NCBI GenBank assembly: GCA_016432525.1
Contig: CP066693.1
Location: 482,732 to 546,731 of the forward strand
DNA from: Candidatus Woesebacteria bacterium
GTDB lineage: Bacteria; Patescibacteriota; Microgenomatia; UBA8517
DNA: 64,000 bases
Direction: 5' to 3'
The notes below the pieces were generated by a model, which saw nothing but the letters and a program-made list of their open reading frames with translations, ran no database searches and was not told where the DNA came from. A program made the translations under genes and the position numbers. Below are positions 1 through 42,505 of this stretch, one piece after another; position 1 is the first letter of the stretch; every line of letters starts with the position of its first letter.

Positions 1-1482
1 GTAAGAATATTTGGTTTTTCATTTGTCGATACTGTAAAAATCCTATTTGCATTAGGCTTTGTTGCATCTGGCTTAGCAATGTATTTTTTAGCAAGGGAAT
101 TTTTTGGGGAACTAGGCGCAGTTCTTGCCTCAGCTTTTTACATTTGGGCACCCTATCATTCAGTTGATGTTTTTGTACGAGGTGCCATGAACGAATCCTG
201 GGCTTTAATTTGGTTTCCAGCAATCCTCTTGTTTTCCTATAAACTAATCACAAACAAAAAATCTTCTCTATCTGCTAACTACTATCTACTAATTGCTTTG
301 TCTTTATCTTGGACAGGGCTTTTGCTATCTCACAATTTAATGGTTATGATATTCACTCCAGTTTTTGCTGTATGGTGTTTAATCTTATTAATCAAGGTAA
401 AATCCTTCAATAAAATCCCTCAACTTCTAGTTTCAGGAATTTTTGCCTTCGGTCTTGCTGCTTTTTTCACTCTACCTGTCTTTCTGGAACAAAATCTTGT
501 TCACACAGACACATTGATCGCTGGTTATTATGAATATACAGCTCATTTCGCAACCATAAAACAACTATTATTCTCAAGGTTCTGGGGTTATGGTCCCTCC
601 ATCTGGGGAGATAAAGATGGTATGTCTTTCCAAGTAGGACAAATGCATTGGATTCTATCATTTGTAACTTTATCTTTGTTTGCTATCAAAATAGTAAAAT
701 CCAAAAACAAAAAAATAGAAATCAAAAATTCAATATTGGTAATTTTCTTCATAATGGTTGGTATTTTCGCTATTTTTATGACCCACAATAAATCAACTCC
801 TCTTTGGGTTAGATTTACTCTCATTAAATTTGTCCAATTTCCGTGGAGATTTCTAACACTCGTGATTTTAAGTTTTTCTTTCGCGATTGGTTCACTTGTG
901 ACTTTTTTTAAAAACAAAAAAACAAAATATATAGTAGTAGGCGGGTTAATTTTTACTCTAGTTGCCTTCAATTGGACTTATTTTGAAGTACAAAATGGGA
1001 AATTAGGCCCACTAACTGATCAACAAAAATTTTCAGGTACTGCTTGGGAGCTACAACGAACAGCAGGAATTTATGATTATCTTCCAAAATCAGCAAGATT
1101 CAATCCAAGAGATGGTCAAATGGGCATAGCAGAGGTTTTAAAAGGAAAAGCAGATATTAAAAATCCTCTCGAGGCGACAAATCATCAAGAATTCACAGTA
1201 ATAGCAAGTGAAAGCTCAGTCATAAGAATAAATACTTATTTTTATCCAAGTTGGAAAGTATTTGTAGATGGAAAAGAAACTAAAATAGAAGTTCCAGAAG
1301 GCGAGGAATGGGGAAGAATGTATATTACAGTATCTAAAGGAACACACGATATTACAGCTCGTCTTTATAATACTTGGCCAAGGACAGTAGGAAATATCAT
1401 ATCTCTCGTTTCTTGGGCAATCTTGGGGTTTGTCATGCTAAAATCAAGTAGATGGCAGATTTCCACGAAGAGGAGCACTTAG
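1..1482 (+). CDS. Polytopic membrane protein, GT-C-like. It is 5'-partial and continues upstream of the window. It is a paralog of 21954..23582.
   Basis: The frame stays open from base 1 (VRIFGFSFVDTVKILFALGF... precedes the first Met at 79). It shares long collinear motifs with ORF 21954..23582 (APYHSVDVFVRGA / APYRAVDIWVRGA; FSRFWGYGPSIWG / ISRFWGYGASVWG; LTHNKST; FPWRFL). It has many hydrophobic TM segments. Confidence 0.6.
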   Translation, partial: VRIFGFSFVDTVKILFALGFVASGLAMYFLAREFFGELGAVLASAFYIWAPYHSVDVFVRGAMNESWALIWFPAILLFSYKLITNKKSSLSANYYLLIALSLSWTGLLLSHNLMVMIFTPVFAVWCLILLIKVKSFNKIPQLLVSGIFAFGLAAFFTLPVFLEQNLVHTDTLIAGYYEYTAHFATIKQLLFSRFWGYGPSIWGDKDGMSFQVGQMHWILSFVTLSLFAIKIVKSKNKKIEIKNSILVIFFIMVGIFAIFMTHNKSTPLWVRFTLIKFVQFPWRFLTLVILSFSFAIGSLVTFFKNKKTKYIVVGGLIFTLVAFNWTYFEVQNGKLGPLTDQQKFSGTAWELQRTAGIYDYLPKSARFNPRDGQMGIAEVLKGKADIKNPLEATNHQEFTVIASESSVIRINTYFYPSWKVFVDGKETKIEVPEGEEWGRMYITVSKGTHDITARLYNTWPRTVGNIISLVSWAILGFVMLKSSRWQISTKRST

Positions 1483-2945
1483 ATCCAACCTCAGAAATTA
1501 CACTCGAAACTGTTAAAGAGAGAAGTGTGAGAGGAATATTAGTTCTCACAGGAAGAACTTTTTTTCTTCAAGTAATTGCAGTTATTGCTCTAGGCTTCTT
1601 GTGGGCATATTTAACTCCTTCCCAATGGGGAGTTTTCTTCGTCCTTAACGCAGTCATAAATTTCTTAAATTATTTTTCCGACATAGGTTTGGCCGCAGCT
1701 TTGATTCAGAAAAAAGAGCACCCCTCAGAAACTGATCTAAAAACTACTTTTTTTGTTCAGCAGGTTTTGGTTATTACAATAATCGCGATAGTAATTTTAT
1801 TAACCCCTTTCTTTACGAAAAAATTTTCTTTAAATAATGACGGTGTAATTCTTTTATACGCTCTAGCATTTTCTTTCTTTTTATCATCTCTAAAAAGCAT
1901 TCCTTCAGTTCTTTTAGAACGAAAGCTGGAATTTGTAAAATTAACTTTTCCTCAAATTTTAGAACAGGTCTTTTATTACGTAATTCTAGTAGTTTTTGCA
2001 GTCCAAGGTTTTGGAATAAAAAGCTTTACAATAGCAGTAATTGCAAGAGATATAGTAGGAGTTGTTGTAATCTATATACTTCAGCCTTGGAAACCTGGAA
2101 TTGCCTTTTCAAGAAAAACTCTCTCAGGTCTTTTTAAATTCGGAATTCCATACCAAATAAATACTTTTCTCGCAGCAGTTAAAGACGATGGAATGACCTT
2201 AATATTGGGAGGGATTTTAGGTCCAGCTGGGGTAGGTTTTTTAGGAACTGCTCAAAAATTTGCCAGATACCCTTTAACTTTTTTTATGGATACAGTAACC
2301 AGAGTTACCTTTCCAGCTTTTTCCAGAATGCAGGATTCAAGTAGTCATCTGGCAAAAAGTGTCACTCGCTCAATTTTTTTTATTTGTTTTTTGGTTTTCC
2401 CTTCCCTTGCGGGTTTGGTAATTTTATCTCCCTTAATAGTTGAAGTAATTCCACGATACAATCAATGGAAACCAGCTCTTTTTGCTTTAACTTTCATCTC
2501 AATTAACTTTGGTTTCGCTGCTGCAACCACTCAATTAACAAATCTATTAAACGCGATTGGAAAAATTAAAATTACTTTCTTTTTAATGATAATGTGGACA
2601 GTATTAACATGGGCCTTAATTCCAATATTAGCTCTAAAATTTGGAGTAAGTGGAGCAGCTTTTGGTTACTCTTTGGTTGGAGCATCTTCAATTGTTGCAA
2701 TAATAGTTGCTAAAAAATATGTAAATTTTTCTCTTTACCACTCAATCGGAAAGCCTTTAATAGGAACTTCAATAATGGCTACAATATTAATAATTTTAAG
2801 AACAATTCTCCCAGTTAGTGCCTACTCAATTTTCGTTCTCGCAATAGTTGGTGTAATAGTCTACACAGTTTTGATGATAGTTTTGGTGGGTATTTCTTTA
2901 ATAGAGGATGCTAAAAAAAGTTTCAAAACAATTTTCGGCAAATAA
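1452..2945 (+). CDS. MOP-superfamily flippase (Wzx / polysaccharide biosynthesis protein-like).
   Basis: 497 aa with about 12-14 predicted TM helices. The N-terminus (RSVRGILVLTGRTFFLQVIAVIALGFLWAYLTPSQWGVFFVLNAVINFLNYFSDIGLAAALIQK) is typical of the Polysacc_synt/Wzx family. The ATG at 1452 overlaps the upstream gene by 31 nt. Confidence 0.6.
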   Translation: MADFHEEEHLDPTSEITLETVKERSVRGILVLTGRTFFLQVIAVIALGFLWAYLTPSQWGVFFVLNAVINFLNYFSDIGLAAALIQKKEHPSETDLKTTFFVQQVLVITIIAIVILLTPFFTKKFSLNNDGVILLYALAFSFFLSSLKSIPSVLLERKLEFVKLTFPQILEQVFYYVILVVFAVQGFGIKSFTIAVIARDIVGVVVIYILQPWKPGIAFSRKTLSGLFKFGIPYQINTFLAAVKDDGMTLILGGILGPAGVGFLGTAQKFARYPLTFFMDTVTRVTFPAFSRMQDSSSHLAKSVTRSIFFICFLVFPSLAGLVILSPLIVEVIPRYNQWKPALFALTFISINFGFAAATTQLTNLLNAIGKIKITFFLMIMWTVLTWALIPILALKFGVSGAAFGYSLVGASSIVAIIVAKKYVNFSLYHSIGKPLIGTSIMATILIILRTILPVSAYSIFVLAIVGVIVYTVLMIVLVGISLIEDAKKSFKTIFGK

Positions 2946-4629
2946 ACTCTTAATAATTCTAGTTTTTCTAGGAAGTCTAAGTTGGTCTCTTACTATGGTC
3001 AAAAGTGGACTTAACTACTCTTTTGGCCAAGGTTTTTGGGGACCAAATGGCCACGATGGAATTTGGCACATAGCTCTCATCAAATCATTAGCTCGTGGAT
3101 CTTTTGACATGCCTTCCTTTGCAGGACAGCGTCTAAAAAATTACCACATCGGCTTCGATCTTTTGATAGCAACTTTAAACAAAGTGACCTCAATTCCAGT
3201 TGAAACTTTATATTTCCAAATTACTCCAGTTATTCTTTCAATTTTAATAGGAATCTTAACTTACAAATTTGTGATATTCTGGAAAAATTCCAAAACATCT
3301 GCTCTTTGGGCAACCTTTTTTGTTTATTTTGGTGGAAGTTTTGGCTGGATTGTAAATATTTTAAGAAGGGAAGAAATAGGTGGAGAATCAATGTTTTGGT
3401 CTCAACAATCTATCTCAACCCTTTTAAATCCGCCGTTTGCGTTATCAATTGTAATCCTTCTGCTTGGTTTAATTAGCTTGATAAAATTTCAAAAATCCCT
3501 GACTACTAACTACTTACTACTAACTACTATTTTGTTTGGAATTCTGATAGAAATAAAATCCTATGCTGGCATCCTTGCATTGATAGCACTATTTCTAGCC
3601 GGAATCTGGGAATTTTACAAAAACAAAAAAATAAATTTACTAAAGATCTTCTTTTTTTCATCGATTATTTCATCTATTTTGATGATTTCAATAAGCGGCA
3701 TTTCAAAAGGAATTTTAATCTGGCAACCATTTTGGTTTTTAGAAACTCTTCTCTCTCTTTCTGATCGTTTTTACTGGCCAAAATTATATTCTGCAATCAC
3801 AACTTATAAAGACATCAAAAACTATTTAAAGCTTATTCCGGCCTATTTTTTAACATTTTTAATTTTCTGGTATGGTAACCTTTGGACACGTTCTCTAAAG
3901 GAAATTCACGTCTTGAAGTGGTTAAAAAATATCAAAAAAATTGATTCTCTAGATATTTTTTTAGGGTCAGTAATTATGTTCGGAGGAGCAATTCCAATAT
4001 TTTTTGTCCAAAAAGGCACACCTTGGAATACAATTCAATTTTTCTATTACAGTTTAATGTTTTCCGGGATATTAGCAGGGGTTTCCATATCTGAATTTCT
4101 CAAAAACAAATCCAAAAAATTCTCTCTTTTTCTTTCTGTTGCAATTATCGCCCTCACCGTTCCAACTTCAGTAGCCACTTTAGTCCATCACTACTTGCCT
4201 TCTCGTCCTCCGGCAAAAATTTCAAATCAAGAGCTCTCTGCTCTAGATTTCTTAAGTAAACAACCTCAAGGGGTAGTGTTAACCTACCCATTTGATCAAT
4301 ATCTTGCAGACAAAGCTGTGGCAAATCCTCCTAGACCACTTTATTTGTATGATTCAACAGCTTATGTGGGAGCTTTTTCAGGAAAGCCAGTCTTTTTGGA
4401 AGATCAAGTAAATCTTGATATTACAGGTTTTGATTGGGGGGAAAGAAGACAAGAAGTCGAAAACTTTCTAAAAAGTAAAGATATAAATTTTGTAAGAAAC
4501 TTTCTAAAAAACAATAATATTAAATATATCTATTGGGTAAAACCCCAAAGGGCAACTTATGGCCCAGACCAATTAGGAATTAAACCAATCTTCGAAAACA
4601 GTGAGGTGTTTATTTATCAGGTACTCTAA
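2908..4629 (+). CDS. Polytopic membrane protein with a C-terminal soluble domain. It may be a GT-C-like glycosyltransferase or an O-antigen-ligase-like protein.
   Basis: 573 aa, of which about 400 aa are highly hydrophobic, followed by a soluble tail of about 170 aa. The alternative internal start MVKSG at about 2995 would remove the 38-nt overlap with the upstream gene. No family-specific motif was recognised with confidence. Confidence 0.4.
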   Translation: MLKKVSKQFSANKLLIILVFLGSLSWSLTMVKSGLNYSFGQGFWGPNGHDGIWHIALIKSLARGSFDMPSFAGQRLKNYHIGFDLLIATLNKVTSIPVETLYFQITPVILSILIGILTYKFVIFWKNSKTSALWATFFVYFGGSFGWIVNILRREEIGGESMFWSQQSISTLLNPPFALSIVILLLGLISLIKFQKSLTTNYLLLTTILFGILIEIKSYAGILALIALFLAGIWEFYKNKKINLLKIFFFSSIISSILMISISGISKGILIWQPFWFLETLLSLSDRFYWPKLYSAITTYKDIKNYLKLIPAYFLTFLIFWYGNLWTRSLKEIHVLKWLKNIKKIDSLDIFLGSVIMFGGAIPIFFVQKGTPWNTIQFFYYSLMFSGILAGVSISEFLKNKSKKFSLFLSVAIIALTVPTSVATLVHHYLPSRPPAKISNQELSALDFLSKQPQGVVLTYPFDQYLADKAVANPPRPLYLYDSTAYVGAFSGKPVFLEDQVNLDITGFDWGERRQEVENFLKSKDINFVRNFLKNNNIKYIYWVKPQRATYGPDQLGIKPIFENSEVFIYQVL

Positions 4630-4656
4630 GCTTCATTTCATGCTAAAATAAGTCTG

Positions 4657-5556
4657 ATGGAAGGCTTATCTGTAGTCATAAACACTCTAAATGAAGAGAA
4701 AAATCTACCTTCTGCTATTACTTCAATTAAAGATCTAGCTTCGGAAATAATAGTTGTTGATATGTATTCAGATGACAAAACAACTAAAATTGCCAAAAAA
4801 TTAGGTGCTAAAGTATTTATGCACGATAAAACAAACTATGTTGAACCAGCCAGAAATTTTGCAATTTCAAAGGCAAGCTGTGATTGGATTCTAATTTTAG
4901 ATGCCGACGAAGAAATTCCTCCTAAACTTTCCAAAGAGATTAAAAAAATAGTCAAAGATTCAAAAGCCGATTATTTTCGTCTTCCTCGAAAAAATATAAT
5001 TTTTGGTAAATGGATAAAAGATTCAGGCTGGTGGCCAGATTATAATATTCGCCTTTTTCGAAAAAATTTTGTTTCTTGGAATGAAATAATTCATACGGTT
5101 CCAATAACAACAGGAATTGGCGCAGATTTAAAAGATTCAGAAGATTTAGCAATAATTCATCATAACTATCAATCAATAGAACAATTTATTGATCGAATGA
5201 ACAGATACACCACAATTCAGGCAAAAATAGCCTTTGGCAAAAAAGAAAATTTTAATTGGCAGAATTTAATTAAAAAACCCCTCTCTGAATTTTTAAATAG
5301 ATATTATTCACTACAAGGATATAAAGGTGGGCTACACTCTCTTTCTCTTTGCCTTTTACAAGCCGCTTCCGAATTAGTTAAAGAACTAAAACTATGGCAA
5401 TTATATAAATTCAATGATCAGAAGATTACTTTTAAAGAAAACATGAATGTAATTAAAGAAAGCCAAAAAGAGTTCAATTATTGGATACATGATACTAATT
5501 TTAAAGAAACAGGAAGCGTTAAATCTAAAATAAAAAGAAAATTCCGCCTAAGTTAA
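4657..5556 (+). CDS. GT2 family glycosyltransferase.
   Basis: The N-terminus (LSVVINTLNEEKNL...IIVVDMYSDDKT) and the DxD-type motif ILDADEEIP match GT2. It is a paralog of 6458..7228 and 28819..29685. Confidence 0.7.
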   Translation: MEGLSVVINTLNEEKNLPSAITSIKDLASEIIVVDMYSDDKTTKIAKKLGAKVFMHDKTNYVEPARNFAISKASCDWILILDADEEIPPKLSKEIKKIVKDSKADYFRLPRKNIIFGKWIKDSGWWPDYNIRLFRKNFVSWNEIIHTVPITTGIGADLKDSEDLAIIHHNYQSIEQFIDRMNRYTTIQAKIAFGKKENFNWQNLIKKPLSEFLNRYYSLQGYKGGLHSLSLCLLQAASELVKELKLWQLYKFNDQKITFKENMNVIKESQKEFNYWIHDTNFKETGSVKSKIKRKFRLS

Positions 5557-5558
5557 GT

Positions 5559-6467
5559 ATGACCAAAATCTTCATAATAATTTTAAACTGGAATAGGTAC
5601 CAAGATACTCATGATTGCCTCAAAAGTCTTGAAAAAATTAACAAAAAAAATTTGGATCTAAATATTTTAGTTGTAGATAATGGTTCAAAGGTGGAGGAGA
5701 TAGAAAAACTTAAAAAAATAGTTCCTGCTAATTCTTTAATATTAAACAACAAAAATTTGGGCTTTGCCCAAGGAAATAATGTTGGAATTCGTCAAGCCTT
5801 AAAAAATAATGCAGATTACGTTCTTGTTTTGAACAACGATACCTTTTTAGATAAAAATTTTTTAACTGAGCTTGTGAGTACAGCTCAAAAAGACAAAAAA
5901 ATAGGAGCTCTCACCTCCAAAATTTATTTCGCTAAAGGTTATGAGTTTCATAAAGACAGGTATAAAAAATCGCAAACAGGGAAGGTTATTTGGTCGGCAG
6001 GTGGCGCTATTGATTGGAATAATATTTATGCAACCAACTATGGTGTTGATGGAATCGATGAGGGGCAATTTCAAAAAGTCAAAGAAGTCGATTTTGCAAC
6101 CGGCGCTTGTGTTCTTTATAACGCCAATGCTTTGAAAAAGGTTGGAGTTTTCGATCCCCGCTATTTTATGTATTTTGAAGATGTCGATTTAAGTATGCGT
6201 CTCAAAAAACATGGATTTAAAGTTGTATTCGTTCCAAAATCCGTCATTTGGCACAAAGTTGCACAAAGCTCAGGAATAGGGAGCAACTTGAATGACTATT
6301 TTATCACCAGAAATAGATTAATTTTCGGCTTTCGCTTTGGGAAGTTAAGGGCTAGAATAGCACTTATTAAAGAAGGCATTAAATTTTTAATTAAAGGTAG
6401 GTTTTGGCAGAAAATTGGTTTCACCGATTTTCTGATCGGAAATTTAGGTAAAGGATCATGGAAATAA
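5559..6467 (+). CDS. GT2 family glycosyltransferase (rhamnosyltransferase / WbbL-like subgroup).
   Basis: IFIIILNWNRYQDTHDCLKSL...VVDNGSKVEE...LGFAQGNNVGIRQA...YVLVLNNDTFL and GACVLYNANALKKVG are typical GT2_3-like motifs. Confidence 0.7.
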   Translation: MTKIFIIILNWNRYQDTHDCLKSLEKINKKNLDLNILVVDNGSKVEEIEKLKKIVPANSLILNNKNLGFAQGNNVGIRQALKNNADYVLVLNNDTFLDKNFLTELVSTAQKDKKIGALTSKIYFAKGYEFHKDRYKKSQTGKVIWSAGGAIDWNNIYATNYGVDGIDEGQFQKVKEVDFATGACVLYNANALKKVGVFDPRYFMYFEDVDLSMRLKKHGFKVVFVPKSVIWHKVAQSSGIGSNLNDYFITRNRLIFGFRFGKLRARIALIKEGIKFLIKGRFWQKIGFTDFLIGNLGKGSWK

Positions 6468-7228
6468 AAATCTCATCAATCATAATCGCCAAAAACGAAG
6501 AGAAAATGATAAAAGATTGTATCAACTCTCTTCATTGGACTGATGAAATTATAGTAATTGATAACAATTCAACAGATAAAACTGTGAGTATTGCCAAAAA
6601 TCTTGGAGCCAAAATCTTCAAATTTAAATCCGACGCAGACAAAGGTCATTTTGCAGAAATCAGAGAATATGCGGCGACTAAAGCTAATTCTGAATGGTTA
6701 TTATATATAGATGCAGACGAAAGAGTTCCAGAAAATCTTAAAAAAGAGATTATGCAATTAAATCTAAAAGATGAAGCATATGCAATTCCAAGAAAAAATA
6801 ATCTCCTAGGCCATGATATGAGTTGGGGAGGTTGGTATCCAGATTATGTCTTAAGACTCATAAAAAAAGATAAACTAAAAGGCTTTGCAGGAGTTCTTCA
6901 CGAGCAACCGATAATTGATGGAGAAGTTGGAAAACTTAAAAACCCCCTTTATCACATAACTCACCAATCAATCACCGAGATGATAGAAAAAACCAACAAT
7001 TGGTCTGAAATCGAAGGCAGATTAATGTATGATGCAGGACATCCTCCTATGAATATTCCAAGATTTGCATCAGCGATGTTTCGGGAATTCTGGTATCGAG
7101 CAATTCTAAAGTTTGGATTTTTAGATGGCCCTATTGGAATAATAGAAATAATCTATCAAGTGTTTAGTCGTTTTATAAGCTACTCAAAACTTTACGAATT
7201 ACAAATAACAAAACAAGATAAAAAATGA
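6458..7228 (+). CDS. GT2 family glycosyltransferase.
   Basis: ISSIIIAKNEEKMIKDCINSL...IIVIDNNSTDKT...LLYIDADERVP. It overlaps the upstream gene by 10 nt. It is a paralog of 4657..5556. Confidence 0.7.
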   Translation: MEIKISSIIIAKNEEKMIKDCINSLHWTDEIIVIDNNSTDKTVSIAKNLGAKIFKFKSDADKGHFAEIREYAATKANSEWLLYIDADERVPENLKKEIMQLNLKDEAYAIPRKNNLLGHDMSWGGWYPDYVLRLIKKDKLKGFAGVLHEQPIIDGEVGKLKNPLYHITHQSITEMIEKTNNWSEIEGRLMYDAGHPPMNIPRFASAMFREFWYRAILKFGFLDGPIGIIEIIYQVFSRFISYSKLYELQITKQDKK

Positions 7229-19735: not shown

Positions 19736-19769
19736 GATTTGATTTTCTAGGCTTATACTAAAATTATAG

Positions 19770-20324: not shown

Positions 20325-20343
20325 TTTAGGGTATAATTAATCT

Positions 20344-25242: not shown

Positions 25243-25571
25243 ACCTAAAATGCCCAACATGTCATGTGGATGTTCGTCAAACCGATTTTTTTTGTTATAA
25301 CTGTGGCAAAAAATTGAAATCAAAACCACTTTCAACTTCCATAACAACACAAGCCCTTATTTACTTAGGAAGTTTTCTTCTTCCTCCAATGGGAATAATT
25401 TGGGGAATTAAATATTTGAGACAGGAGAATAGTCAATCGAAAATAGTTGGTATGATTGCAATTTTATTAACTATCATATCTCTAATTTTAACCATTATTT
25501 TTACAATTAATTTTGTAAACAGTTTAAATAGTCAAATAAACTCACAATTGCAAAACTTTGGTGGATTATGA
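25230..25571 (+). CDS. Small zinc-ribbon membrane protein (hypothetical).
   Basis: 113 aa. It has an N-terminal CPTC-x14-CYNC four-Cys motif followed by two TM helices. It overlaps both neighbouring PMT_2 genes by a few nt. Confidence 0.45.
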   Translation: MEELNLKCPTCHVDVRQTDFFCYNCGKKLKSKPLSTSITTQALIYLGSFLLPPMGIIWGIKYLRQENSQSKIVGMIAILLTIISLILTIIFTINFVNSLNSQINSQLQNFGGL

Positions 25572-27208: not shown

Positions 27209-28818
27209 AAAAACAAAAAATAATATTAATCCTAATTGTAATTTTGGCCTTTTGCCTTAGATTTTATAAATTAAATTCCTATCCTGCTTTAAATGCGGAC
27301 GAGGCAAGTATTGGTTATGATGCCTATTCTCTAATAAAAACAGGTCGTGATCAACATGGAAATTCCTGGCCTCTTCAGTTTCAATCTTTTAATGATTACA
27401 AGCCAGGCCTTTATGTATATATCGTTTTACCATTTGTAAAATTCTTATCTCTTAACGAATGGTCTATCCGAATCCCGTCTGCATTTTTAGGAGTTGCAAC
27501 TGTATATATTATTTATCTTTTAATAAAAGAATTATTTAATGATGAAAAATTCGCTCTTATTGGATCTTTTCTACTTGCAATTTCTCCTTGGCACTTACAT
27601 TTCTCAAGAAGCGGATGGGAAGTAAATATCGCAACATTTTTTATAACTTTAGGATTATTGTTTTTCTTTAAAGCTATCAAAAAGCAAAAATTTAGTTCCT
27701 TTTTCTTTTCTGTTTTGTTCTTTGTGCTATCTATGTATACTTATCATTCCGCCAGAATAGTAGTTCCGTTTCTGGGAATTGGTTTATTTTATTTTTACTT
27801 AAAAGATCTTAAAAAAAATCTAAAATTAGTAAGTATTTCAGTAATAATTTTCGGGTTACTAATAATTCCAATAACAAACAAAGATGCTCTTTCAAGGGCT
27901 GGTGGTGTAAGTATTTTTTCAGACAAAGGGATTATCTCAGGAATTAATGAACAAAGAGGGGAAGGGGCAAATTCTACTCTTACAAAGATTTTACACAACA
28001 AAGTTATAAATTACTCACTAATTTTTGCAGATAACTATTCCAAACATTTCTGGGGAGAATTTCTGTTTCTTTCAGGTGATGTAATTCAAAGAAATAGAGT
28101 TCCAGAAACAGGTCAGCTATATCTTTTTGAAATAATAACTTTGTCCGTAGGTATATATTTCATTATTAAAAAAACAAACAAAGAATGGGGGTTAATTATA
28201 TTCTGGTTAATTATTTCTCCGGCTGCAGCTGCTCTTACGTTTCAATCACCTCACGCTCTACGTGCTCATAATATGGTCATACCATTAACAATTATTAGCT
28301 CATATGGTTTGATGAAAATCCTAAATTTGCTAAAAAATCTGAAAATTAAGAACATATTTTTATTAGGAAACTTTCTTATCTTAATTTTTATTTCATGGTG
28401 TGTTGCGCGCTATCTTCATGAATACTATATTCACATGTCAAAGGAATATCCCTACTCATCTCAATATGGAGTCAAAGAAATGGTCTCATATTTATCCCAA
28501 AATCAAGGTAGTTTCCAGAAAATTTTTGTTACTGACAGATATGACCAACCTTACATTCTCTATCTTTTTTACACAAAAACTGACCCATCTTGGTTTCAAA
28601 AAAATCATAACTTAACCGCTCCGGATAAATTTGGATTTTCAACAGTTCGTGATGTAGCTTCTATTCATTTTGAGTCCATTGATTTTGAAAAACTCAAACA
28701 AAATTACCCAAATTCGCTTATAATAGGCGATACCAAAGAGATCCCCAAAGAAGCTAACATAATTAAAAAAATATATGGAGCTAATGGATTTCTATATTTT
28801 GAGGTAGTAAAAAATTAA
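27205..28818 (+). CDS. PMT_2 / ArnT-like polytopic membrane glycosyltransferase (GT-C).
   Basis: LNADEASIGYDAYSLIKTGRDQHGNSWP. It overlaps the upstream gene by 4 nt. Confidence 0.7.
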   Translation: MKKQKIILILIVILAFCLRFYKLNSYPALNADEASIGYDAYSLIKTGRDQHGNSWPLQFQSFNDYKPGLYVYIVLPFVKFLSLNEWSIRIPSAFLGVATVYIIYLLIKELFNDEKFALIGSFLLAISPWHLHFSRSGWEVNIATFFITLGLLFFFKAIKKQKFSSFFFSVLFFVLSMYTYHSARIVVPFLGIGLFYFYLKDLKKNLKLVSISVIIFGLLIIPITNKDALSRAGGVSIFSDKGIISGINEQRGEGANSTLTKILHNKVINYSLIFADNYSKHFWGEFLFLSGDVIQRNRVPETGQLYLFEIITLSVGIYFIIKKTNKEWGLIIFWLIISPAAAALTFQSPHALRAHNMVIPLTIISSYGLMKILNLLKNLKIKNIFLLGNFLILIFISWCVARYLHEYYIHMSKEYPYSSQYGVKEMVSYLSQNQGSFQKIFVTDRYDQPYILYLFYTKTDPSWFQKNHNLTAPDKFGFSTVRDVASIHFESIDFEKLKQNYPNSLIIGDTKEIPKEANIIKKIYGANGFLYFEVVKN

Positions 28819-29685
28819 ATGAAAAAACTCTCAGTTGTTTTAGCTGTAAGGAACGAAGAAAAAAATCTTTCCGATTGCCTCGATTCTATTAAAAATATCG
28901 CAGATGAGATTGTAGTAGTTGATGAGTATTCAACCGACAAAACTGTTGAAGTTGCCAAAAAGTATGGTGCAAAAGTATATCTTGAACCACACAATGAAAT
29001 ATTTCATGTTACAAAACAAAAAGCCATAGACAAAGCAAGTGGTGATTGGATACTCCAACTCGATGCTGATGAGATTGTCTCAAAAAGCTTAGGAGAGGAA
29101 ATTAAAAAGGCTATCGACATGTCTTACGACGATATTACAAATAGGAAAATTAATCCAAAAAAAGAAGAACTTTTTGAAAGGCATCAACGCCTTATAGAAG
29201 AAAGAGATGGTCAATTGGGCAAAAATAAAGGCGAAATTGTTGCCTTTTTCATTCCTAGAAAGAATTTTTTTCTAGGAAAACCTTTAATTCATGGAGGTGT
29301 CTACCCCGACGGGGTTATTAGGTTAATCAAAAAAGGTAAAGCCCATCTACCAGCAAAATCGGTTCATGAACAGATGGTAATTGATGGAAAAATCGCATGG
29401 CTAAATAATGATCTTGAACACCACGACTCTCCTAACTTGCGTCGATATTTGATACGTCTAAATCGTTATACAGATCTTCATGCACGTGAGTTAAAAGAAA
29501 AAAAATCCCCTAAAAATATTTTTTACTTCTTTTATTATAGTGTTATAAAATTTAAACTCGGTTTTCTGAAACTTTTCTTTCTGCATGCCGGATTTAAAGA
29601 TGGTATAAGAGGATTTTTGTGGTCATTTTTATCTAGTATGCATTACCCCATTGCTTACTTTAAATATTGGACGGGATATAATTAA
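28819..29685 (+). CDS. GT2 family glycosyltransferase.
   Basis: LSVVLAVRNEEKNLSDCLDSI...IVVVDEYSTDKT...ILQLDADEIV. It is a paralog of 4657..5556 and 6458..7228. Confidence 0.7.
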   Translation: MKKLSVVLAVRNEEKNLSDCLDSIKNIADEIVVVDEYSTDKTVEVAKKYGAKVYLEPHNEIFHVTKQKAIDKASGDWILQLDADEIVSKSLGEEIKKAIDMSYDDITNRKINPKKEELFERHQRLIEERDGQLGKNKGEIVAFFIPRKNFFLGKPLIHGGVYPDGVIRLIKKGKAHLPAKSVHEQMVIDGKIAWLNNDLEHHDSPNLRRYLIRLNRYTDLHARELKEKKSPKNIFYFFYYSVIKFKLGFLKLFFLHAGFKDGIRGFLWSFLSSMHYPIAYFKYWTGYN

Positions 29686-29689
29686 GAGT

Positions 29690-30703
29690 ATGAAAGTAGC
29701 AATTGATTCCGGTCCCATAACCTCAGGTCATTCAGTTCGTGGAATTGGTGTCCACACTAGTGAGTTAATAAATCATTTAAAAAAACTTAAAGGATTGGAA
29801 ATAGACGTAGTTGATTTCTCAAAATCAGATCTTAAAAATTTCGATATTGTTCACTATCCATCTTTCCATCCACATATTCTCTCACTACCAATTTTTAAAA
29901 AAAATAAATCAATAGTTACTATTCACGATTTAATTAGATTAATTTACCCCGAAGCTTATCCACCTGGATTAAAGGGTAAATTCAACTTTTTTCTTCAAAA
30001 ACTAGCTTTGAAAAATATCGACGCAGTAATAACTATTTCAGAAACTTCCAAGAAAGACATTATAAGGTTTTTGAATATTCCTCCAGAAAAGATATTTGTA
30101 ATCTATTTAGCTCAAGATGAAATTTATAAAAAGATAAAAGATAAGAAAATTTTAAATGCAATCAAAAAAAAATACGATCTTCCTAATAAGTTTGTGCTTT
30201 TTGTGGGAGATGTAAATTACAATAAAAACCTTAATAATTTGGCCAAAGCTTGTAAAATAGCTAAAATTCCTCTTGTGATGGTAGGCAAACAAACCAAGGT
30301 AGAAAACTTGGATAATCATATTGAAAATTTATCTTGGATTAACTTTCTTAAAAAATACAAAAACGATAGGAATATAATAAGACTTGGCTTTTTGGATAGA
30401 GAGGAAGTTGTTGCAATTAATAATCTTGCAACTGTCTATTGTCAGCCATCTCTATATGAAGGCTTTGGACTTCCTTGTTTAGAAAGCTTAGCTTGCGGAA
30501 CTCCAGTTGTTGCAGCTAAAACTCAAGCTATTGTTGAAATTTTAGGTTCAGCCGCAACATATGTCGATCCATATGATCCTTCTAGTATCGTTAAAGGATT
30601 TGAAAAACTTGTCAAAAATCCTAAACTTCCAAGAATCTACTCCTGGGAAAAAACAGCACTTGAAACATATGAAGTTTATAAAAAAGTTTTTCAAAAAAAA
30701 TAA
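29690..30703 (+). CDS. GT4 family glycosyltransferase (GT-B).
   Basis: The C-terminal motifs (FVLFVGDVNYNKN...PSLYEGFGLPCLESLACGTPVVAA) match GT4. I place the start at ATG 29690 (MKVAIDSG). The longer track ORF from 29651 overlaps the upstream gene. Confidence 0.65.
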   Translation: MKVAIDSGPITSGHSVRGIGVHTSELINHLKKLKGLEIDVVDFSKSDLKNFDIVHYPSFHPHILSLPIFKKNKSIVTIHDLIRLIYPEAYPPGLKGKFNFFLQKLALKNIDAVITISETSKKDIIRFLNIPPEKIFVIYLAQDEIYKKIKDKKILNAIKKKYDLPNKFVLFVGDVNYNKNLNNLAKACKIAKIPLVMVGKQTKVENLDNHIENLSWINFLKKYKNDRNIIRLGFLDREEVVAINNLATVYCQPSLYEGFGLPCLESLACGTPVVAAKTQAIVEILGSAATYVDPYDPSSIVKGFEKLVKNPKLPRIYSWEKTALETYEVYKKVFQKK

Positions 30704-31838
30704 AACTCTAAAAATTTTTATTTTAACTTTAATTATTTGGAGGGTCTTTTTATTTTTCCCAATTTTTATCTCACAATTTATATTTCCTTTAAGTAGAAGT
30801 TATCTTGGCGGAGGGCTTAAATGGTATTTAACAAATCCTTATCTTTATGGTTGGGCCAATTTTGACGGTGAGCACTACCTCACAATTTCAAGAGATGGAT
30901 ACAGAATGTACGAATATTTTTTCTTTCCTGTTTTTCCTCTATTAATTAGATTTATAGCACAAATTTTCAGTAATACTTTTGTTTCTCACCTTGTAACATC
31001 GATAATAATTTCAAACATTTCATTTATCATTTCATTATTTGGATTTTGGAAATTATTAAGACTAGATTACGACAAAAAATTTTCACTTTTTTGTATTTTT
31101 ACACTACTCTGTTTCCCAATGTCTTTTTTCTTTACTTCAACCTATACAGAGTCAATATTTTTTGCGTTTATTATATGGACTTTTTACTTTGCAAGAAAAA
31201 AAAGATGGTTTTTTGCAAGTCTTTTAGGACTTTTTGCGTCAGCTACACGAATAGTTGGAATACTAATGTTACCAGTAGTATTTATTGAAATAATAATGAC
31301 CAGAAAAAATATTAACTACAAAATAGTTAACAGTCTATTTACGTTACTTATCCCGTTGGGGCTGTTAAGTTTTATGTTTTATCTTAAAAGACAGACGGGG
31401 GATCCCTTAATTTTTTTAAATACTATAAATATTTTTGGAAATCAAAGGTCGTCTCATCTTATTCTTCTTCCTCAAGTTTTTTACCGATATTTTTTTAAAA
31501 TTATTCCAAACTTAACACTTTCTTATTTTCAAACTAATTTTTTAACATTTATCGAACTAGCATCTGGAATAATTCTTTTAGTATTATCTGTAATCTCTTT
31601 TTTTAAATTGAGACTAAGTTATTCAATATTTTTAATATCTGGCTACATTGTTCCAACTTTAACAGGAAGTTTCTCATCATTGCCAAGATATATGTTAGTT
31701 TTATTTCCTGCATTTATTTTAATAGGAAAATTTTTGGAGAAAAAATCAGAATTTGCTAAAGTCCTAATACTATCAATATCGCTCTTTACTTTAGTTTTGG
31801 CGGAAAGTATTTTTATGAGAGGTTACTTTATTTCATGA
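30669..31838 (+). CDS. Polytopic membrane protein, GT-C-like (possibly PIG-V/GT76- or DUF2029-like mannosyltransferase).
   Basis: About 390 aa from ATG 30669 (MKFIKKFF). It has an N-terminal TM helix, then the loop GGGLKWYLTNPYLYGWANFDGEHYLTISRDGY and 9-10 further TM helices. The track ORF from 30561 appears to use an upstream alternative start inside the preceding gene. Confidence 0.45.
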   Translation: MKFIKKFFKKNKTLKIFILTLIIWRVFLFFPIFISQFIFPLSRSYLGGGLKWYLTNPYLYGWANFDGEHYLTISRDGYRMYEYFFFPVFPLLIRFIAQIFSNTFVSHLVTSIIISNISFIISLFGFWKLLRLDYDKKFSLFCIFTLLCFPMSFFFTSTYTESIFFAFIIWTFYFARKKRWFFASLLGLFASATRIVGILMLPVVFIEIIMTRKNINYKIVNSLFTLLIPLGLLSFMFYLKRQTGDPLIFLNTINIFGNQRSSHLILLPQVFYRYFFKIIPNLTLSYFQTNFLTFIELASGIILLVLSVISFFKLRLSYSIFLISGYIVPTLTGSFSSLPRYMLVLFPAFILIGKFLEKKSEFAKVLILSISLFTLVLAESIFMRGYFIS

Positions 31839-33094
31839 AAAAAATCAAAGAAGTATTAAATCATCCAATGGCTTCCAGTAGTGCACTTCTTATCTTTGGG
31901 AGTTTAGGAATAAATGTAATCAATCTAATATATCACTTTGTGATGGGTAATATTTTAGGTCCAGTAAATTATGGAACATTACTAAGTCTTTACTCAATCC
32001 TTTACATTTTAAGCATAGTTCCACTTTCTTCAAGCGTTGCGATAGTTAAATTTATATCCAAATCTAAAAGCAAAAAGGAAAGAATGGTTGTATATAATGC
32101 AATTAAAAAATTGATATTGTATATTGCAATTTTTGGTTCAGCATTTGTAGTTATTCTTTCTCCAATAATCTCAAATTTTTTAAATATTAAAGATGTAGTA
32201 AGCACTTTACTTACCGCAGGGGTATTATTTTTTAGTCTTATTACTCTCGTAAATCAGGCGAGTTTGCAAGGCATACTCAAATTTATGGGAGTTGTCCTTC
32301 CCAACTTCGTTTCAAGTGCAATAAAACTTATTCTAGGGGTAGTTTTAGTTTGGGTCGGTTTTTCTGTTGAAGGGGCAATGTTTGCAGTTGTGATAGGTGT
32401 TGCAGTTGCCTACATTCTTTCGCAATCAATGGCTAAAAAGCATTTTTCAGGAAATTCTAAGAAAGAATTTGATTTGAAACCATTCTTCAATTATTCAAAG
32501 CCAGTCTTGCTTCAAGCATTTGCGTTTACCTCCCTATTCACAACAGATGTAATTTTGGTTAAGCATTTTTTTAGTCCATTCGACGCAGGGCTGTACGCAG
32601 CTCTCTCAACTTTAGGAAAAATTGTCTATTTTGGAGCCTCTCCTGTTGCGTCAGTGATGTTTCCCTATGTTTCCGGTAAACACTCACGGGGAGAAAAATA
32701 CATTAAAGTTTTATGGGGAGCTTTACTTCTTACAGCAAGTATTTCATTTGGAGTAGTGGTTATTTATGCTCTTTTCCCAAATCTGGTAGTTAAAATTCTA
32801 TACGCTAAATATATTAAAGCTGTTCCATATTTGGTCTGGATGGGAGCCTTTATCGCTTTCTATACAATTGCAAATCTATTAACTAATTTCTTCTTATCGA
32901 TTGATAAATTAAAAATCGTATTAGTTCCCTTGTTTTTTGCAATTCTCCAGATTATATTAATTTGGTTCTACCACAACTCAATTCTGCAAGTCATTCAAGT
33001 GTCCCTAATTGAGATGATATTTCTGTGCCTCATATTATTTACATATTTAGTTTATAATCGGCTAAGTTTAACAAATGAAGCGAAGGCAAAATAA
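31835..33094 (+). CDS. MOP-superfamily flippase (Wzx-like). It is the second copy in the locus.
   Basis: 419 aa with 12-14 TM helices and a Polysacc_synt-like N-terminus (ALLIFGSLGINVINLIYHFVMGNILGPVNYGTL). Confidence 0.55.
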   Translation: MKKIKEVLNHPMASSSALLIFGSLGINVINLIYHFVMGNILGPVNYGTLLSLYSILYILSIVPLSSSVAIVKFISKSKSKKERMVVYNAIKKLILYIAIFGSAFVVILSPIISNFLNIKDVVSTLLTAGVLFFSLITLVNQASLQGILKFMGVVLPNFVSSAIKLILGVVLVWVGFSVEGAMFAVVIGVAVAYILSQSMAKKHFSGNSKKEFDLKPFFNYSKPVLLQAFAFTSLFTTDVILVKHFFSPFDAGLYAALSTLGKIVYFGASPVASVMFPYVSGKHSRGEKYIKVLWGALLLTASISFGVVVIYALFPNLVVKILYAKYIKAVPYLVWMGAFIAFYTIANLLTNFFLSIDKLKIVLVPLFFAILQIILIWFYHNSILQVIQVSLIEMIFLCLILFTYLVYNRLSLTNEAKAK

Positions 33095-33851
33095 AAAGTT
33101 TTTGTCTGTAGTTGTCCCTGCCTATAAACAGGAAAAAACTATTAAAAAAGACCTTAAAATAATTGATAAAACTCTCAAAAAAGGTCTTAAAAACACAAAA
33201 TATGAAATAATTTGTATTGTTGATGGAATAGTTGATAACACTCTAAAAGAAGCTAAAAAAGCGAAATCTTCTCATATAAAAATCTTCTCATATAAAGAAA
33301 ACAAGGGAAAAGGGCATGCTGTACGCTTTGGTATGTCAAAATGTAAAGGAAATCTCATCTCCTTTCTAGATGCAGGAATGGATATTAGCCCAAAAGGAAT
33401 AATGATGCTTATGGCCCATTTAGAATGGTACAACGCAGATGTTGTGGTTGGATCAAAAAGACACCCCGTTTCCAGAGTTAACTATCCTCTTGAAAGACGC
33501 ATTTTAAGTATAGGTTACCATAAGCTAGTTAGAATATTTTTCGCCCTTCCACTTACAGATACACAAAGTGGTATTAAAATATTTAGAAGAAAAGTTGTAA
33601 GAAAAATTTTACCTAGACTCTTAGTTAAAAAATACGCAATGGATATAGAAATGCTTGCGGTTGCTAAATATTTGGGATTTAATCGTATTTACGAAGCTCC
33701 GATAGAGGTTACTTTCAGTAGGCAAGCTAGTGCTATAAAATGGTCAACTAGCATTAAAATGGCATGGGACACAATAGCAGTCTTTTATAGATTAAAAATA
33801 TTACATTATTATAATGATTATAATCGCAAAAAATGGGGAAAAAATAAATGA
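33075..33851 (+). CDS. GT2 polyprenol-phosphate glycosyltransferase (DPM1/GtrB-like, soluble type).
   Basis: LSVVVPAYKQEKTI...EIICIVDG...KGKGHAVRFG...FLDAGMD...ADVVVGSKRH...TQSGIKIFRR matches the DPM1 / dolichyl-phosphate sugar synthase signature regions. Confidence 0.6.
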   Translation: MKRRQNKKFLSVVVPAYKQEKTIKKDLKIIDKTLKKGLKNTKYEIICIVDGIVDNTLKEAKKAKSSHIKIFSYKENKGKGHAVRFGMSKCKGNLISFLDAGMDISPKGIMMLMAHLEWYNADVVVGSKRHPVSRVNYPLERRILSIGYHKLVRIFFALPLTDTQSGIKIFRRKVVRKILPRLLVKKYAMDIEMLAVAKYLGFNRIYEAPIEVTFSRQASAIKWSTSIKMAWDTIAVFYRLKILHYYNDYNRKKWGKNK

Positions 33852-34972
33852 ATATTCTTGTATTTTCATGGAGAGGTCCTAAACATCCTCTAGCAGGAGG
33901 AGCGGAACAAGTAGATCATGAACACCACAAAGGCTGGATAAAAGCGGGCCATAAGGTAGTTCTTTTTACCTCAAATTTTAAAAAAGGGAAAGAAAAAGAG
34001 ATTATAGACGGGGTAAAAATTATTCGTAGAGGAAACCAAATCCTAGGAGTACATCTCTCGGCATTCCTTTGGTATTTTCTCAAGAAACATCCTAAGTTTG
34101 ATTTAGTAGTGGATGAATTTCATGGAATTCCTTTTTTCACCCCACTTTATATAAAAGAAAAAAAAATGGTCGTTCTTCAAGAAGTTGCAGGCAAAGTCTG
34201 GCTTAAAAATGAATTAATCTGGCCATTAAATTTAATAATAGGATTTTTGGGATACTTATTTGAACCTTTAATTTATAAACTATACAAAAAAGTTCCATTT
34301 ATGGTTGGTTCTAATTCAGCAAAAATTGCTTTAGAAAAAATTGGAATTCAAAAAAAAGACATCACAGTTGTTCAACATGGTGTAATTACAAAAAAACAAA
34401 CAAAAAAAATTATCAAGGAAAAAATAAAAACCATAATCTTTTTGGGAACTTTAGCAAAAGATAAAGGAATAGAGGACGCATTGAAAGTTTTTTCAATTCT
34501 AAAATCAAAAAGAGAATTTCAATTTTGGGTAGTTGGGAAATCCGATACCTTTTATTTAAAAAAACTTAAAAAAATGTCTAAAAATCTAAAAATCTCAAAA
34601 CAAATTAAATTTTGGGGATATGTCTCTTCAGAAAAGAAATTTGAGCTACTCTCAAAAGCTCATCTATTATTAAACCCATCCATACTCGAAGGTTGGGGAC
34701 TTGTGAATATAGAGGCAAACGCAATGAAAATTCCAGTCGTTGCCTATAATTCTCCAGGTCTTGTAGATTCAGTACAAAACGGATTTAACGGGTTGATTTG
34801 CAAAAACAATTCTCCCGAAAACATGGCACAAAATATAGAAAAAATCTTCGCAAGTCACAAACTCTATCTAAAATTAAAAAAAAATTCCTTGATTTGGAGC
34901 AAAAATTTTTCTTGGGATAAATCTAGAAAATTAAGTTTAAATTTAATTAACGAAATCACTAACAATGCTTGA
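33848..34972 (+). CDS. GT4 family glycosyltransferase (GT-B).
   Basis: IIFLGTLAKDKGIEDALKVF...NPSILEGWGLVNIEANAMKIPVVAYNSPGLVDSVQNGFNGLI. Confidence 0.65.
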   Translation: MNILVFSWRGPKHPLAGGAEQVDHEHHKGWIKAGHKVVLFTSNFKKGKEKEIIDGVKIIRRGNQILGVHLSAFLWYFLKKHPKFDLVVDEFHGIPFFTPLYIKEKKMVVLQEVAGKVWLKNELIWPLNLIIGFLGYLFEPLIYKLYKKVPFMVGSNSAKIALEKIGIQKKDITVVQHGVITKKQTKKIIKEKIKTIIFLGTLAKDKGIEDALKVFSILKSKREFQFWVVGKSDTFYLKKLKKMSKNLKISKQIKFWGYVSSEKKFELLSKAHLLLNPSILEGWGLVNIEANAMKIPVVAYNSPGLVDSVQNGFNGLICKNNSPENMAQNIEKIFASHKLYLKLKKNSLIWSKNFSWDKSRKLSLNLINEITNNA

Positions 34973-34997
34973 TTTTTTATAATTTTACATTCATACT

Positions 34998-35507
34998 ATG
35001 TGTATGTTTAAAAGGTTTCTTGCTTTTACTCTGCTAATAGCACTTTCTTTAGGGCTAGCTTCTCCAACATTTGCACAAGTTCCTAGCCCTACTCCTACTC
35101 CTAAAATAGAAAATGTAAATTCTTTTGAACTTTTCTGGCCGATGGCTCCAGGTAAAACAATGGCTGACTCATTATATTTTCTTAAATCTTTAAAAGAAAA
35201 AATTAGAGGACTTTTAATTTTTGGTACACCACAAAAAGTAAATTACTCTGTCTATCTTTCCACTAAGCGTATATTGGAAGCTGAAAAACTCTATAACGAC
35301 AAAAATAAGGACCTAGGAAATAAAACAATGGATGAAGCAATAAAAGACCTTAATAAAGCCGTTTCTCAAAACAGTAAAGGAACAGACGAGACAAGTGACA
35401 GGTTAGCTAGACTTGATAAATTTTTAACCTGGTTTACAACAAAAAATTCTGCCGACAAATCTAAAATTCAAGATGCACTAAGTTTAGTGAAAAAACTTCT
35501 AGGATAA
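34998..35507 (+). CDS. Small secreted protein. It has a signal peptide and is a paralog of 41041..41532.
   Basis: Signal peptide LAFTLLIALSLGLASPTFA-QV, then a PSPTPTPK stretch and a helical, Lys-rich body. It shares a segment with 41041..41532 (FGTPQKVNYSVYLSTKRILEAEKL vs FSKTSKVDFYEYLAEKRLAEISYV). Confidence 0.4.
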   Translation: MCMFKRFLAFTLLIALSLGLASPTFAQVPSPTPTPKIENVNSFELFWPMAPGKTMADSLYFLKSLKEKIRGLLIFGTPQKVNYSVYLSTKRILEAEKLYNDKNKDLGNKTMDEAIKDLNKAVSQNSKGTDETSDRLARLDKFLTWFTTKNSADKSKIQDALSLVKKLLG

Positions 35508-42472: not shown

Positions 42473-42505
42473 AGTATAAACTGAATTATAATACAATATC
42501 TAAAA

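Follow-up and report, generated by a model that had tools for sequence, protein, structure and literature searches.

We identified in a 64,000-nt stretch of a Candidatus Woesebacteria bacterium genome (contig CP066693.1; the whole stretch is hereafter the window) a long, tightly packed train of glycosylation genes dominated by membrane-embedded glycosyltransferases (GTs) of the GT-C class. We assign a probability of roughly 0.55 to reading it as a conserved cell-surface glycan assembly locus whose GT-C enzymes would form an extracytoplasmic assembly line. The host is a small-genome member of the Microgenomates, within the Candidate Phyla Radiation (CPR; Patescibacteria), and the window proteins have been deposited under locus tags HYS03_01690 and HY044_02795, where they are named hypothetical proteins of a Candidatus Woesebacteria bacterium. 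The first 6,030 nt of the window are an exact copy of the end of contig JACOTY010000012.1 (assembly GCA_016178105.1), and this sequence-identical contig supplied an upstream flank of 8.5 kb (L001). With a downstream flank of ~10 kb (L084), the searches covered ~82 kb in total. Open reading frames (ORFs) were counted at a length of at least 100 amino acids (aa), giving 54 over the whole window; they were assigned to families with Pfam, NCBIfam and PDB sequence searches and hhalign profile comparison, and transmembrane (TM) segments were located by a hydropathy scan. The G+C content is ~31% across the entire window, and a tRNA scan of the window found none. The glycosylation region amounts to ~80 kb, about 8-9% of the ~0.9-Mb genome, a size taken from the longest contig that carries these proteins (916,571 nt).

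Architecture of the gene train

A preliminary description of this DNA had placed all of the roughly 30 genes from 1 to 35507 on the plus strand, with gaps near zero, and both statements hold. Every one of the 30 ORFs between 79 and 35507 is on the plus strand, and the sole minus-strand ORFs in the interval (588-971 and 12718-13059) are nested within plus-strand genes. The 29 junctions comprise 11 four-nucleotide ATGA overlaps (at 7225, 10543, 12084, 12728, 13624, 16099, 21954, 25568, 27205, 31835 and 33848), 11 other overlaps that depend on longest-ORF starts, several of which shrink with alternative starts, and 7 gaps of 0-34 nt, 34 nt being the largest gap in the train. Ten of the 11 ATGA overlaps listed earlier were recovered; the other, 5556/5559, reads TAA-GT-ATG and is a 2-nt gap, and the overlap at 25568/25571 had been missed.

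The train keeps to one strand over 1-35507 as described, but its real start lies 8,208 nt upstream of the window, where a divergent minus-strand gene precedes it. At base 1 the first ORF is already being read without an upstream stop, its gene being cut by the window edge (full product, 573 aa). Upstream of it the order of the train is GT family 2 (GT2), three PMT_2 genes, GT2, PMT_2 and a 98-aa ORF, followed by the complete 573-aa gene. The full train thus measures ~43.7 kb and holds 37 genes. Judged from gene geometry alone, the tight one-strand packing suggests that the genes are co-transcribed as a polycistronic unit and translationally coupled; promoter and terminator consensus scans returned sites at chance level and are silent on operon structure. 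At the end of the train, the last plus-strand gene and the first minus-strand gene converge at 35507/35508 with zero bases between them, a junction too tight to accommodate an intrinsic terminator.

GT-C enzymes of the train

Every polytopic protein longer than 400 aa in 1-35507 is either a Wzx-type flippase or a GT-C enzyme. The count of GT-C enzymes there is 13, not the more than 15 claimed for these 35 kb, and it rises to 17 in the full train and at least 20 in the sequenced region. Hidden Markov model searches upheld the GT-C and GT2 assignments, with eight PMT/PMT_2/YfhO proteins found by Pfam, seven above the gathering score and one below it. The remaining five are the polytopic proteins in the interval that lack a Pfam match, and were placed by paralogy (two) or by profile or structure (three). 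Hydropathy scans found 7-14 hydrophobic segments in 12 of the 13 candidates and 5 in the edge-truncated first ORF. The catalytic residue of GT-C enzymes sits just after the first TM helix, and an invariant acidic residue follows that helix in each GT-C family examined: D34-E35 (the DE motif) in the PMT_2 paralogues designated family A, D50 (HD50) in the family of 2908-4629, D30 (HGD30) in that of 18494-19735 and D102 (NFDG) in that of 30561-31838. The 13 proteins may use polyprenyl-phosphate-linked sugar donors.

Family A contributes six paralogues, named a to f in order along the train. Pfam recognizes a (14381-16102; PMT_2 2e-9, with the invariant DE motif in the alignment), c (20344-21957; PMT 2e-10, PMT_2 6e-10), d (23572-25242; PMT 2e-7), e (25568-27208; PMT_2 8e-16) and f (27205-28818; PMT_2 4e-13), and b (16778-18460), which has no Pfam match of its own, joins them by 27-30% identity to the other five and an hhalign probability of 100. 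PMT_2 scores in the family are 24-59 bits, and its profile makes bare contact with the solved PMT/ArnT sequences (ArnT, E 0.025). The family's only NCBIfam match, in e, is to TIGR03663, the archaeal 'flippase activity-associated protein Agl23' (3e-16, below cut-off). This match hints at a role of certain PMT_2-like proteins in moving lipid-linked glycans across the membrane and not in transfer. A PMT-like GT-C at 10543-12087 (PMT 19.6 bits, below the cut-off) forms family B with three upstream paralogues, being 27% identical to the product of L001 2574-4076 and related to family A with an hhalign probability of 99.1. The YfhO-like members are the 573-aa protein whose gene begins 240 nt before the window (3' part at 1-1482; full gene, L001 8310-10031), a 777-aa protein at 8213-10546 (YfhO 6e-22) with a PgfM2-like C-terminus (2e-12), and a 542-aa protein at 21954-23582 (YfhO 2e-9; hhalign 99.4 to 8213-10546). 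The first of these, taken as the full gene, is 35% identical to the last over 539 aa (hhalign probability 100).

The proteins placed by profile or structure (2908-4629, 18494-19735 and 30561-31838) were considered as Wzy polymerases and rejected, all three being GT-C by these measures. The first is a previously unannotated GT-C of oligosaccharyltransferase-like architecture: in its structural model a GT-C TM domain is followed by an AglB-like C-terminal globular domain, so that the predicted fold is STT3/AglB-like. Membership in the canonical oligosaccharyltransferases was ruled out by the absence of the WWDYG motif and of an STT3 sequence signal. The consensus and invariant columns of its family (42 sequences) contain no WWDxG, and the STT3 Pfam family has no match to the protein and none precomputed among its best 120 homologues listed.

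The second protein (18494-19735; 413 aa) is predicted from its model and family profile to have the fold of the ALG6/ALG3/PIG-M/PimE class, the family profile matching ALG6 (6snh) at 5e-7. Pfam Alg6_Alg8 does not match the protein itself and matches 8 of 25 orthologues weakly (best 9e-5); two of the 25 also show weak matches (E 0.006) to the Wzy-like family EpsG. To our knowledge, the solved members of the ALG6/ALG3/PimE class all act on lipid-linked glycans, and membership in it is an argument that the acceptor used by this enzyme is lipid-linked. The third protein (30561-31838) is PIG-V/Gpi18-like by the matches of its orthologues: Mannosyl_trans2 detects 8 of 25 (best 3e-13) and not the protein itself, PMT_2 matches 7 of 25, and JGI and NCBI label its homologues 'Gpi18-like mannosyltransferase' or mannosyltransferase family. 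Its true start probably lies 3' of the longest-ORF start, with an in-frame ATG at 30669; the homologues listed are about 370-437 aa long, mostly ~383.

Soluble glycosyltransferases, flippases and candidate donor synthases

The remaining enzymes of the train are as the preliminary description had them, with two Wzx-like flippases, seven GT2, three GT4 and one methyltransferase by Pfam. The flippases are Wzx/MOP-family proteins of 497 aa (1452-2945; ~14 TM segments; Polysacc_synt_3 5e-52, NCBIfam MOP flippase 1e-37) and 419 aa (31835-33094; Polysacc_synt_3 3e-15). Three soluble GT2 enzymes without TM segments follow one another at 4657-5556, 5559-6467 and 6458-7228 (Glycos_transf_2 3e-22, 3e-15 and 1e-16), two more soluble ones lie at 12728-13627 and 13624-14412 (4e-22 and 8e-28), and the others at 28819-29685 (2e-21) and 33075-33851. 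The GT4 enzymes, of GT-B fold, are encoded at 7225-8250 (Glycos_transf_1 1e-21), 29651/29690-30703 (2e-28) and 33848-34972 (5e-37); searched against the PDB, the three gave generic GT-B matches alone, with no PimA/PimB signal and no clue to the acceptor. The methyltransferase (12084-12731; Methyltransf_11 2e-22) is of the S-adenosylmethionine-dependent type.

Five GT2 proteins are candidate polyprenyl-phosphate sugar synthases of the ArnC/GtrB/DPM1-like kind. Two carry two C-terminal TM helices and are encoded outside 1-35507, on the minus strand. One (44586-45557) matches ArnC (9hwj, 2e-43) and GtrB (5ekp, 5e-27) over its full length and the NCBIfam ArnC model at 3.5e-53; the other (60947-61945) is GtrB/PgfS-like, matching the NCBIfam model for PgfS of S. 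mutans at full length (3e-28, below cut-off). Three relatives lack TM segments: 33075-33851, L001 341-1042, which is the first gene of the train, and L001 5552-6313. The best solved or curated matches of this trio are DPMS, ArnC and GtrB (for 33075-33851, DPMS 5mlz at 1e-10, then ArnC and GtrB), and 33075-33851 shares 30% identity with 44586-45557 along 233 aa. Their specificity for lipid phosphate is a candidate assignment.

Search for repeat-unit and ABC-dependent polysaccharide machinery

The train had been described as lacking an initiating transferase, Wzy, Wzz and an ABC (ATP-binding cassette) exporter, and Pfam detected none of these in the 54 window ORFs or in either flank. Specifically, the families Bac_transf, Glycos_transf_4, Wzy_C and Wzz and the ABC-transporter families had no match in the window, the 8.5 kb upstream or the ~10 kb downstream, and neither ABC_tran nor ABC2_membrane, the families expected of a Wzm/Wzt exporter, matched any ORF. 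A canonical initiator, polymerase or exporter immediately upstream would have made this an ordinary polysaccharide locus; the upstream flank holds only more GT2 and PMT_2 genes. On this gene content, the locus is not part of a Wzy-dependent or ABC-dependent pathway, because defining components of each were looked for and not found.

Conservation across the Microgenomates

Relatives of the PMT_2 paralogues number at least 591, and the best among the matches listed, with up to 57% identity, come from Woesebacteria, Shapirobacteria, Collierbacteria, Gottesmanbacteria, Amesbacteria and other Patescibacteria. We surveyed family A by scanning a single genome of each species with a degenerate pattern. 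Full-length loci of the family, ~21 kb long, mostly carry 5-7 paralogues in tandem, and these fall into orthogroups with margins of 100-200 bits over the next-best paralogue. The order a-c-d-e-f, as found in the window, is the commonest (20 of 80 Microgenomates loci), and the genes flanking the family A array are syntenic too. Other Woesebacteria genomes, among them the 810-kb chromosome OZ246419.1, show the gene order as a whole again, its upstream part reading: a PMT_2 array, GT2, PMT_2, a YfhO-like gene, Wzx, the STT3-fold protein, three GT2, GT4, a PMT-like protein of 508-520 aa, two GT2 and PMT_2. One of two loci with this recurring order also has a 765-aa YfhO protein and a methyltransferase. 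A DUF5667 gene closes the cluster in a few close relatives only and is not universal.

The conserved orthogroups, order and synteny imply that the array is ancient, vertically inherited and non-redundant. These sequence comparisons indicate ancient duplication with retention, as would be expected of an assembly line. Thus, the scale that the preliminary description called exceptional is so against bacteria in general, but within the Microgenomates the same array and order are the norm. A comparable count of GT-C genes is found in Mycobacterium tuberculosis, but spread over five times as much genome. Many database records titled 'uncultured Gammaproteobacteria bacterium' (loci L004, L005, L012, L013, L039 and others) carry the Microgenomates GT-C array; some of these 'Gammaproteobacteria' arrays are on chromosomes of ~0.6-0.8 Mb, and the organism names look wrong.

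Small proteins of the train and the region beyond it

Two small exported proteins of the train are rich in proline, threonine and serine (P/T/S). A 184-aa single-TM protein (19770-20324; no family match) has P/T/S-rich stretches and is a possible acceptor, and the last gene of the train (34998-35507; DUF5667 2e-8) encodes a secreted protein whose signal peptide is followed by a PSPTPTP stretch. The stretches in the two proteins include TPTPSPNP, QPVPTSSPSPMPLQTPTP and VPSPTPTPK; in an orthologue (L013 20344-20883) the stretch is ATPKPTSSPKPTATP. Both train proteins could be acceptors of O-glycosylation. Two small membrane proteins are encoded next to family A genes, which their own genes overlap translationally: a 228-aa protein with ~5 TM segments between two family A genes (16099-16785; no Pfam or NCBIfam match), whose homologues hold the same position in loci L026 and L019, and a 113-aa zinc-ribbon protein with 2 TM segments (25230-25571; weak DZR/Zn_Ribbon matches). 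They are candidates for the absent donor flippase or for accessory subunits.

Glycosylation genes do not end at 35507 and continue on both strands past 64000. Two methyltransferases and a polysaccharide deacetylase (35508-37749, minus strand; Methyltransf_11, Polysacc_deac_1) are followed by a GT4 (37812-38963), two long (690-aa) PMT_2 GT-C paralogues with 38% mutual identity (38960-41023 and 42506-44605) and a DUF5667 protein (41041-41532), all on the plus strand, with a minus-strand methyltransferase (41534-42496) between the two paralogues. Pfam then assigns, on the plus strand from 45575 to 53523, a GT2, an NAD-dependent sugar epimerase, a GT4, two methyltransferases (one of FkbM type) and two NodU/CmcH-type carbamoyltransferases, and further GT2 genes lie downstream of this group. 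A 772-aa PMT/PMT_2 GT-C with a carbohydrate-binding module starts at 61966 on the plus strand and is open to the window end at 64000; the full gene on L084 matches PMT_2 (1e-13) and CBM_4_9 (3e-5), and past it come a discoidin-domain protein and another GT2.

The two carbamoyltransferases (49978-53523) are 31.5% identical and lie ~2.7 kb from an ornithine carbamoyltransferase gene (56232-57149, minus strand), which, speculatively, could supply carbamoyl phosphate for O-carbamoylated sugars. Directly after them, 53527-55188 encodes a 553-aa protein that has ~12 TM segments and is matched by neither Pfam nor NCBIfam; it reaches an hhalign probability of 66% to the YfhO group (hhalign probabilities for this protein and for 16099-16785 do not exceed 66%) and may be another GT-C or an acyl- or carbamoyl-related membrane enzyme. 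DUF5667 occurs three times in the region, in the small secreted proteins at 34998-35507 and 41041-41532 and in a 1,146-aa membrane protein (L084 828-4268, minus strand), the last as a weak match below the cut-off (E 0.0018). Neither Pfam nor NCBIfam matches a 472-aa soluble protein (57966-59384, minus strand), whose gene is flanked by those for a GT2 and a xylose-isomerase-like TIM-barrel protein.

A proposed model for glycan assembly and its alternatives

The analysis shows gene families, folds, motifs, packing and synteny, and from these we infer each step of the following mechanism. On the cytoplasmic face, ArnC/GtrB/DPM1-like GT2 enzymes would charge polyprenyl phosphate with single sugars, and soluble GT2 and GT4 enzymes would build up a short glycan, either on a carrier lipid or on a membrane glycolipid. 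The two Wzx/MOP flippases would carry the lipid-linked intermediates across the membrane. Outside, some 13 to 20 GT-C enzymes of at least seven sequence families (the six PMT_2 paralogues, PMT-like family B, two YfhO types and the ALG6/ALG3/PimE-like, PIG-V-like and STT3-fold proteins) would extend and branch the glycan sugar by sugar from polyprenyl-phosphate sugars, each paralogue performing one fixed, non-redundant step. The final product may reside on a protein, a wall polymer or a lipid anchor, with the last transfer performed by the STT3-fold protein encoded beside the first Wzx, by the YfhO proteins or by the PMT-like proteins. Methyl-, carbamoyl- and deacetyl-modifying enzymes encoded downstream would tailor the sugars. 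The dominance of GT-C enzymes and the presence of donor-synthase-type GT2 proteins agree with the PMT/ArnT/Gtr-style system proposed in the preliminary description, but single-sugar decoration is insufficient to account for the locus. Six further soluble GT2, three GT4, two Wzx and an ALG6-class GT-C point to a lipid-linked oligosaccharide or glycolipid that would be flipped and then extended outside.

Several points weigh against the assembly line. No initiating phosphoglycosyl transferase that could prime a lipid-linked oligosaccharide was detected in the ~82 kb; its gene may lie elsewhere in the genome, or a glycolipid may serve as primer instead. No ORF matches the GtrA or EamA/SMR Pfam families expected of a GtrA/GtcA or ArnE/F-type flippase, and the TM-less DPM1-like GT2 proteins score far below the curated NCBIfam cut-offs. 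Furthermore, the structural assignments come from AlphaFold models and the functional claims from homology. In other bacteria, relatives of the PMT and YfhO enzymes add sugars straight to proteins or teichoic acids, with no need for an assembly line.

Direct glycosylation of this kind underlies the alternative that survives best, and we consider it improbable. The locus would then be a collection of independent three-component modules (a GtrB-like synthase, a flippase and a GT-C), modelled on actinobacterial and yeast PMT, streptococcal GtrB/PgtC2 and Pgf and Bacillus/Listeria CsbB-YfhO, that place single sugars onto Ser/Thr-rich proteins or wall polymers and build no large glycan stepwise. 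The PMT/PMT_2 and YfhO Pfam matches are as expected of such modules, as are the full-length PgfS/ArnC-like synthases (60947-61945 and 44586-45557), the PgfM2-like C-terminus of the 8213-10546 protein and the P/T/S-rich small exported proteins within and at the end of the array (19770-20324 and 34998-35507); in streptococci, S/T-rich disordered regions are glycosylated by such pairs of GT2 and GT-C (PMC12041528; PMC5856776). Independent modules leave unexplained, however, why the further soluble GT2 and GT4 enzymes and both Wzx flippases share the same packed train, and the solved ALG6/ALG3/PimE-class members work on lipid-linked glycans. Six paralogues strictly kept in a fixed order also fit sequential steps better than redundant protein O-glycosylation.

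Two further alternatives are each somewhat more doubtful. In the first, Woesebacteria and their Microgenomates relatives may run a pathway resembling that of the endoplasmic reticulum (ER). Synthesis of a lipid-linked oligosaccharide would begin in the cytoplasm, a MOP-family protein would flip it, and a fixed series of GT-C enzymes (ALG6/ALG3-like and PIG-V-like ones among them) would mature it outside. The STT3/AglB-like GT-C, which lacks WWDYG and would recognize its acceptor by a different motif, would then hand over the whole glycan to protein or cell wall. If true, this would amount to a new class of bacterial oligosaccharyltransferase, and the lumenal ALG series would have its counterpart in bacteria. 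Of comparably low probability is a membrane-anchored lipoglycan of the mycobacterial phosphatidylinositol mannoside/lipomannan/lipoarabinomannan (PIM/LM/LAM) type, in which GT4 enzymes would glycosylate a lipid that is flipped and elongated outside by GT-C enzymes. Such a route needs no phosphoglycosyl transferase, in keeping with the absence of one from the ~82 kb, and it would employ the three GT4 and the PIG-V-like enzyme of the train; PIM-type synthesis was proposed for another CPR lineage, a saccharibacterium (PMC6031116). Set against it are the generic PDB matches of the GT4 enzymes, which carry no PimA/PimB signal, the absence of visible inositol-lipid genes from the window and the STT3/AglB-like architecture of 2908-4629, which suggests a non-lipid acceptor at some step.

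An ordinary Wzx/Wzy repeat-unit polysaccharide (capsule- or O-antigen-like), with its initiator elsewhere and a polymerase and ligase too divergent to recognize, is very improbable: two Wzx-type flippases, many soluble GT2 and GT4 enzymes and the weak EpsG matches among orthologues of 18494-19735 would suit it, but the three polytopic candidates are GT-C by profile or structure and not Wzy, no Wzz/PCP (polysaccharide co-polymerase), Wza or ABC genes were detected, and the classical pathway offers no role for thirteen GT-C enzymes, so that the misfit noted in the preliminary description stands and the Wzx/Wzy route is largely excluded.

The CPR/Patescibacteria account for a large share of bacterial diversity and are mostly uncultivated; their genomes are minimal, and they live in attachment to other cells. 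With ~80 kb, ~20 GT-C enzymes and a class-wide gene order devoted to it, the product of the proposed assembly line would be a complex surface glycan central to their biology, for which attachment, host recognition and protection from phage and proteases are suggested roles. The locus offers a defined, conserved gene set for heterologous reconstitution and a large, unannotated GT-C family with oligosaccharyltransferase-like architecture. Further, its natural series of anciently diverged GT-C paralogues could show how donor and linkage specificity evolve.

Comparison with known systems

A full-text literature search found no description of this cluster; multi-copy Dol-P-Man synthase annotations have been reported in Peregrinibacteria (PMC4736985), with related notes for another CPR lineage (PMC6031116). 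In logic, the closest systems would be mycobacterial LM/LAM/arabinogalactan synthesis and the ER ALG pathway with its oligosaccharyltransferase; taken part by part, the locus most resembles the ArnC/ArnT, Gtr, CsbB-YfhO and Pgf systems. The envelope glycans of mycobacteria and corynebacteria (PimA/B, Ppm1, PimE, MptA-C, Emb, AftA-D) belong to another phylum; the genome here is ~0.8-0.9 Mb. The mycobacterial PIM/LAM/arabinogalactan genes are more dispersed, and those described here form a single train that includes YfhO, PIG-V-like and STT3-fold members and, at the sequence level, no Emb/Aft orthologues that we could find. To the ER pathway (ALG1/2/11, RFT1, DPM1/ALG5, ALG3/9/12/6/8/10, STT3) the sequence likeness is marginal, with a profile match to ALG6 at 5e-7 and no STT3 Pfam match. 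WWDYG and an ALG7/WecA-type initiator are absent from the locus, and most of its GT-C enzymes are of the PMT_2 and YfhO types, which the ER N-glycan pathway does not use.

The three-component systems (GtrA/GtrB/GtrC; ArnC/ArnEF/ArnT; CsbB-GtcA-YfhO; PgfS/PgfM1/PgfM2; GtrB-PgtC2) share with the locus GT2 proteins that have C-terminal TM helices and match ArnC/GtrB, as well as YfhO and PMT_2/ArnT-like GT-C enzymes. They differ in having a GtrA/ArnEF-type flippase, none of which was detected here, and one or two GT-C genes where the region has ~20; the Wzx proteins, the many soluble GTs and the ALG6-class enzyme imply more than decoration with a single sugar. PMT (GT39) O-mannosylation in fungi and actinobacteria is similar in the PMT/PMT_2 matches, the DE motif in the first loop and the P/T/S-rich exported proteins encoded in the array, and differs in that no MIR domains were detected here, the paralogues are six and conserved, and PMT_2 scores are low. 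Thus, the enzyme superfamilies and the general strategy are already known, and what appears to be new is a conserved assembly line in the CPR, its density and an unannotated family of oligosaccharyltransferase-like GT-C proteins.

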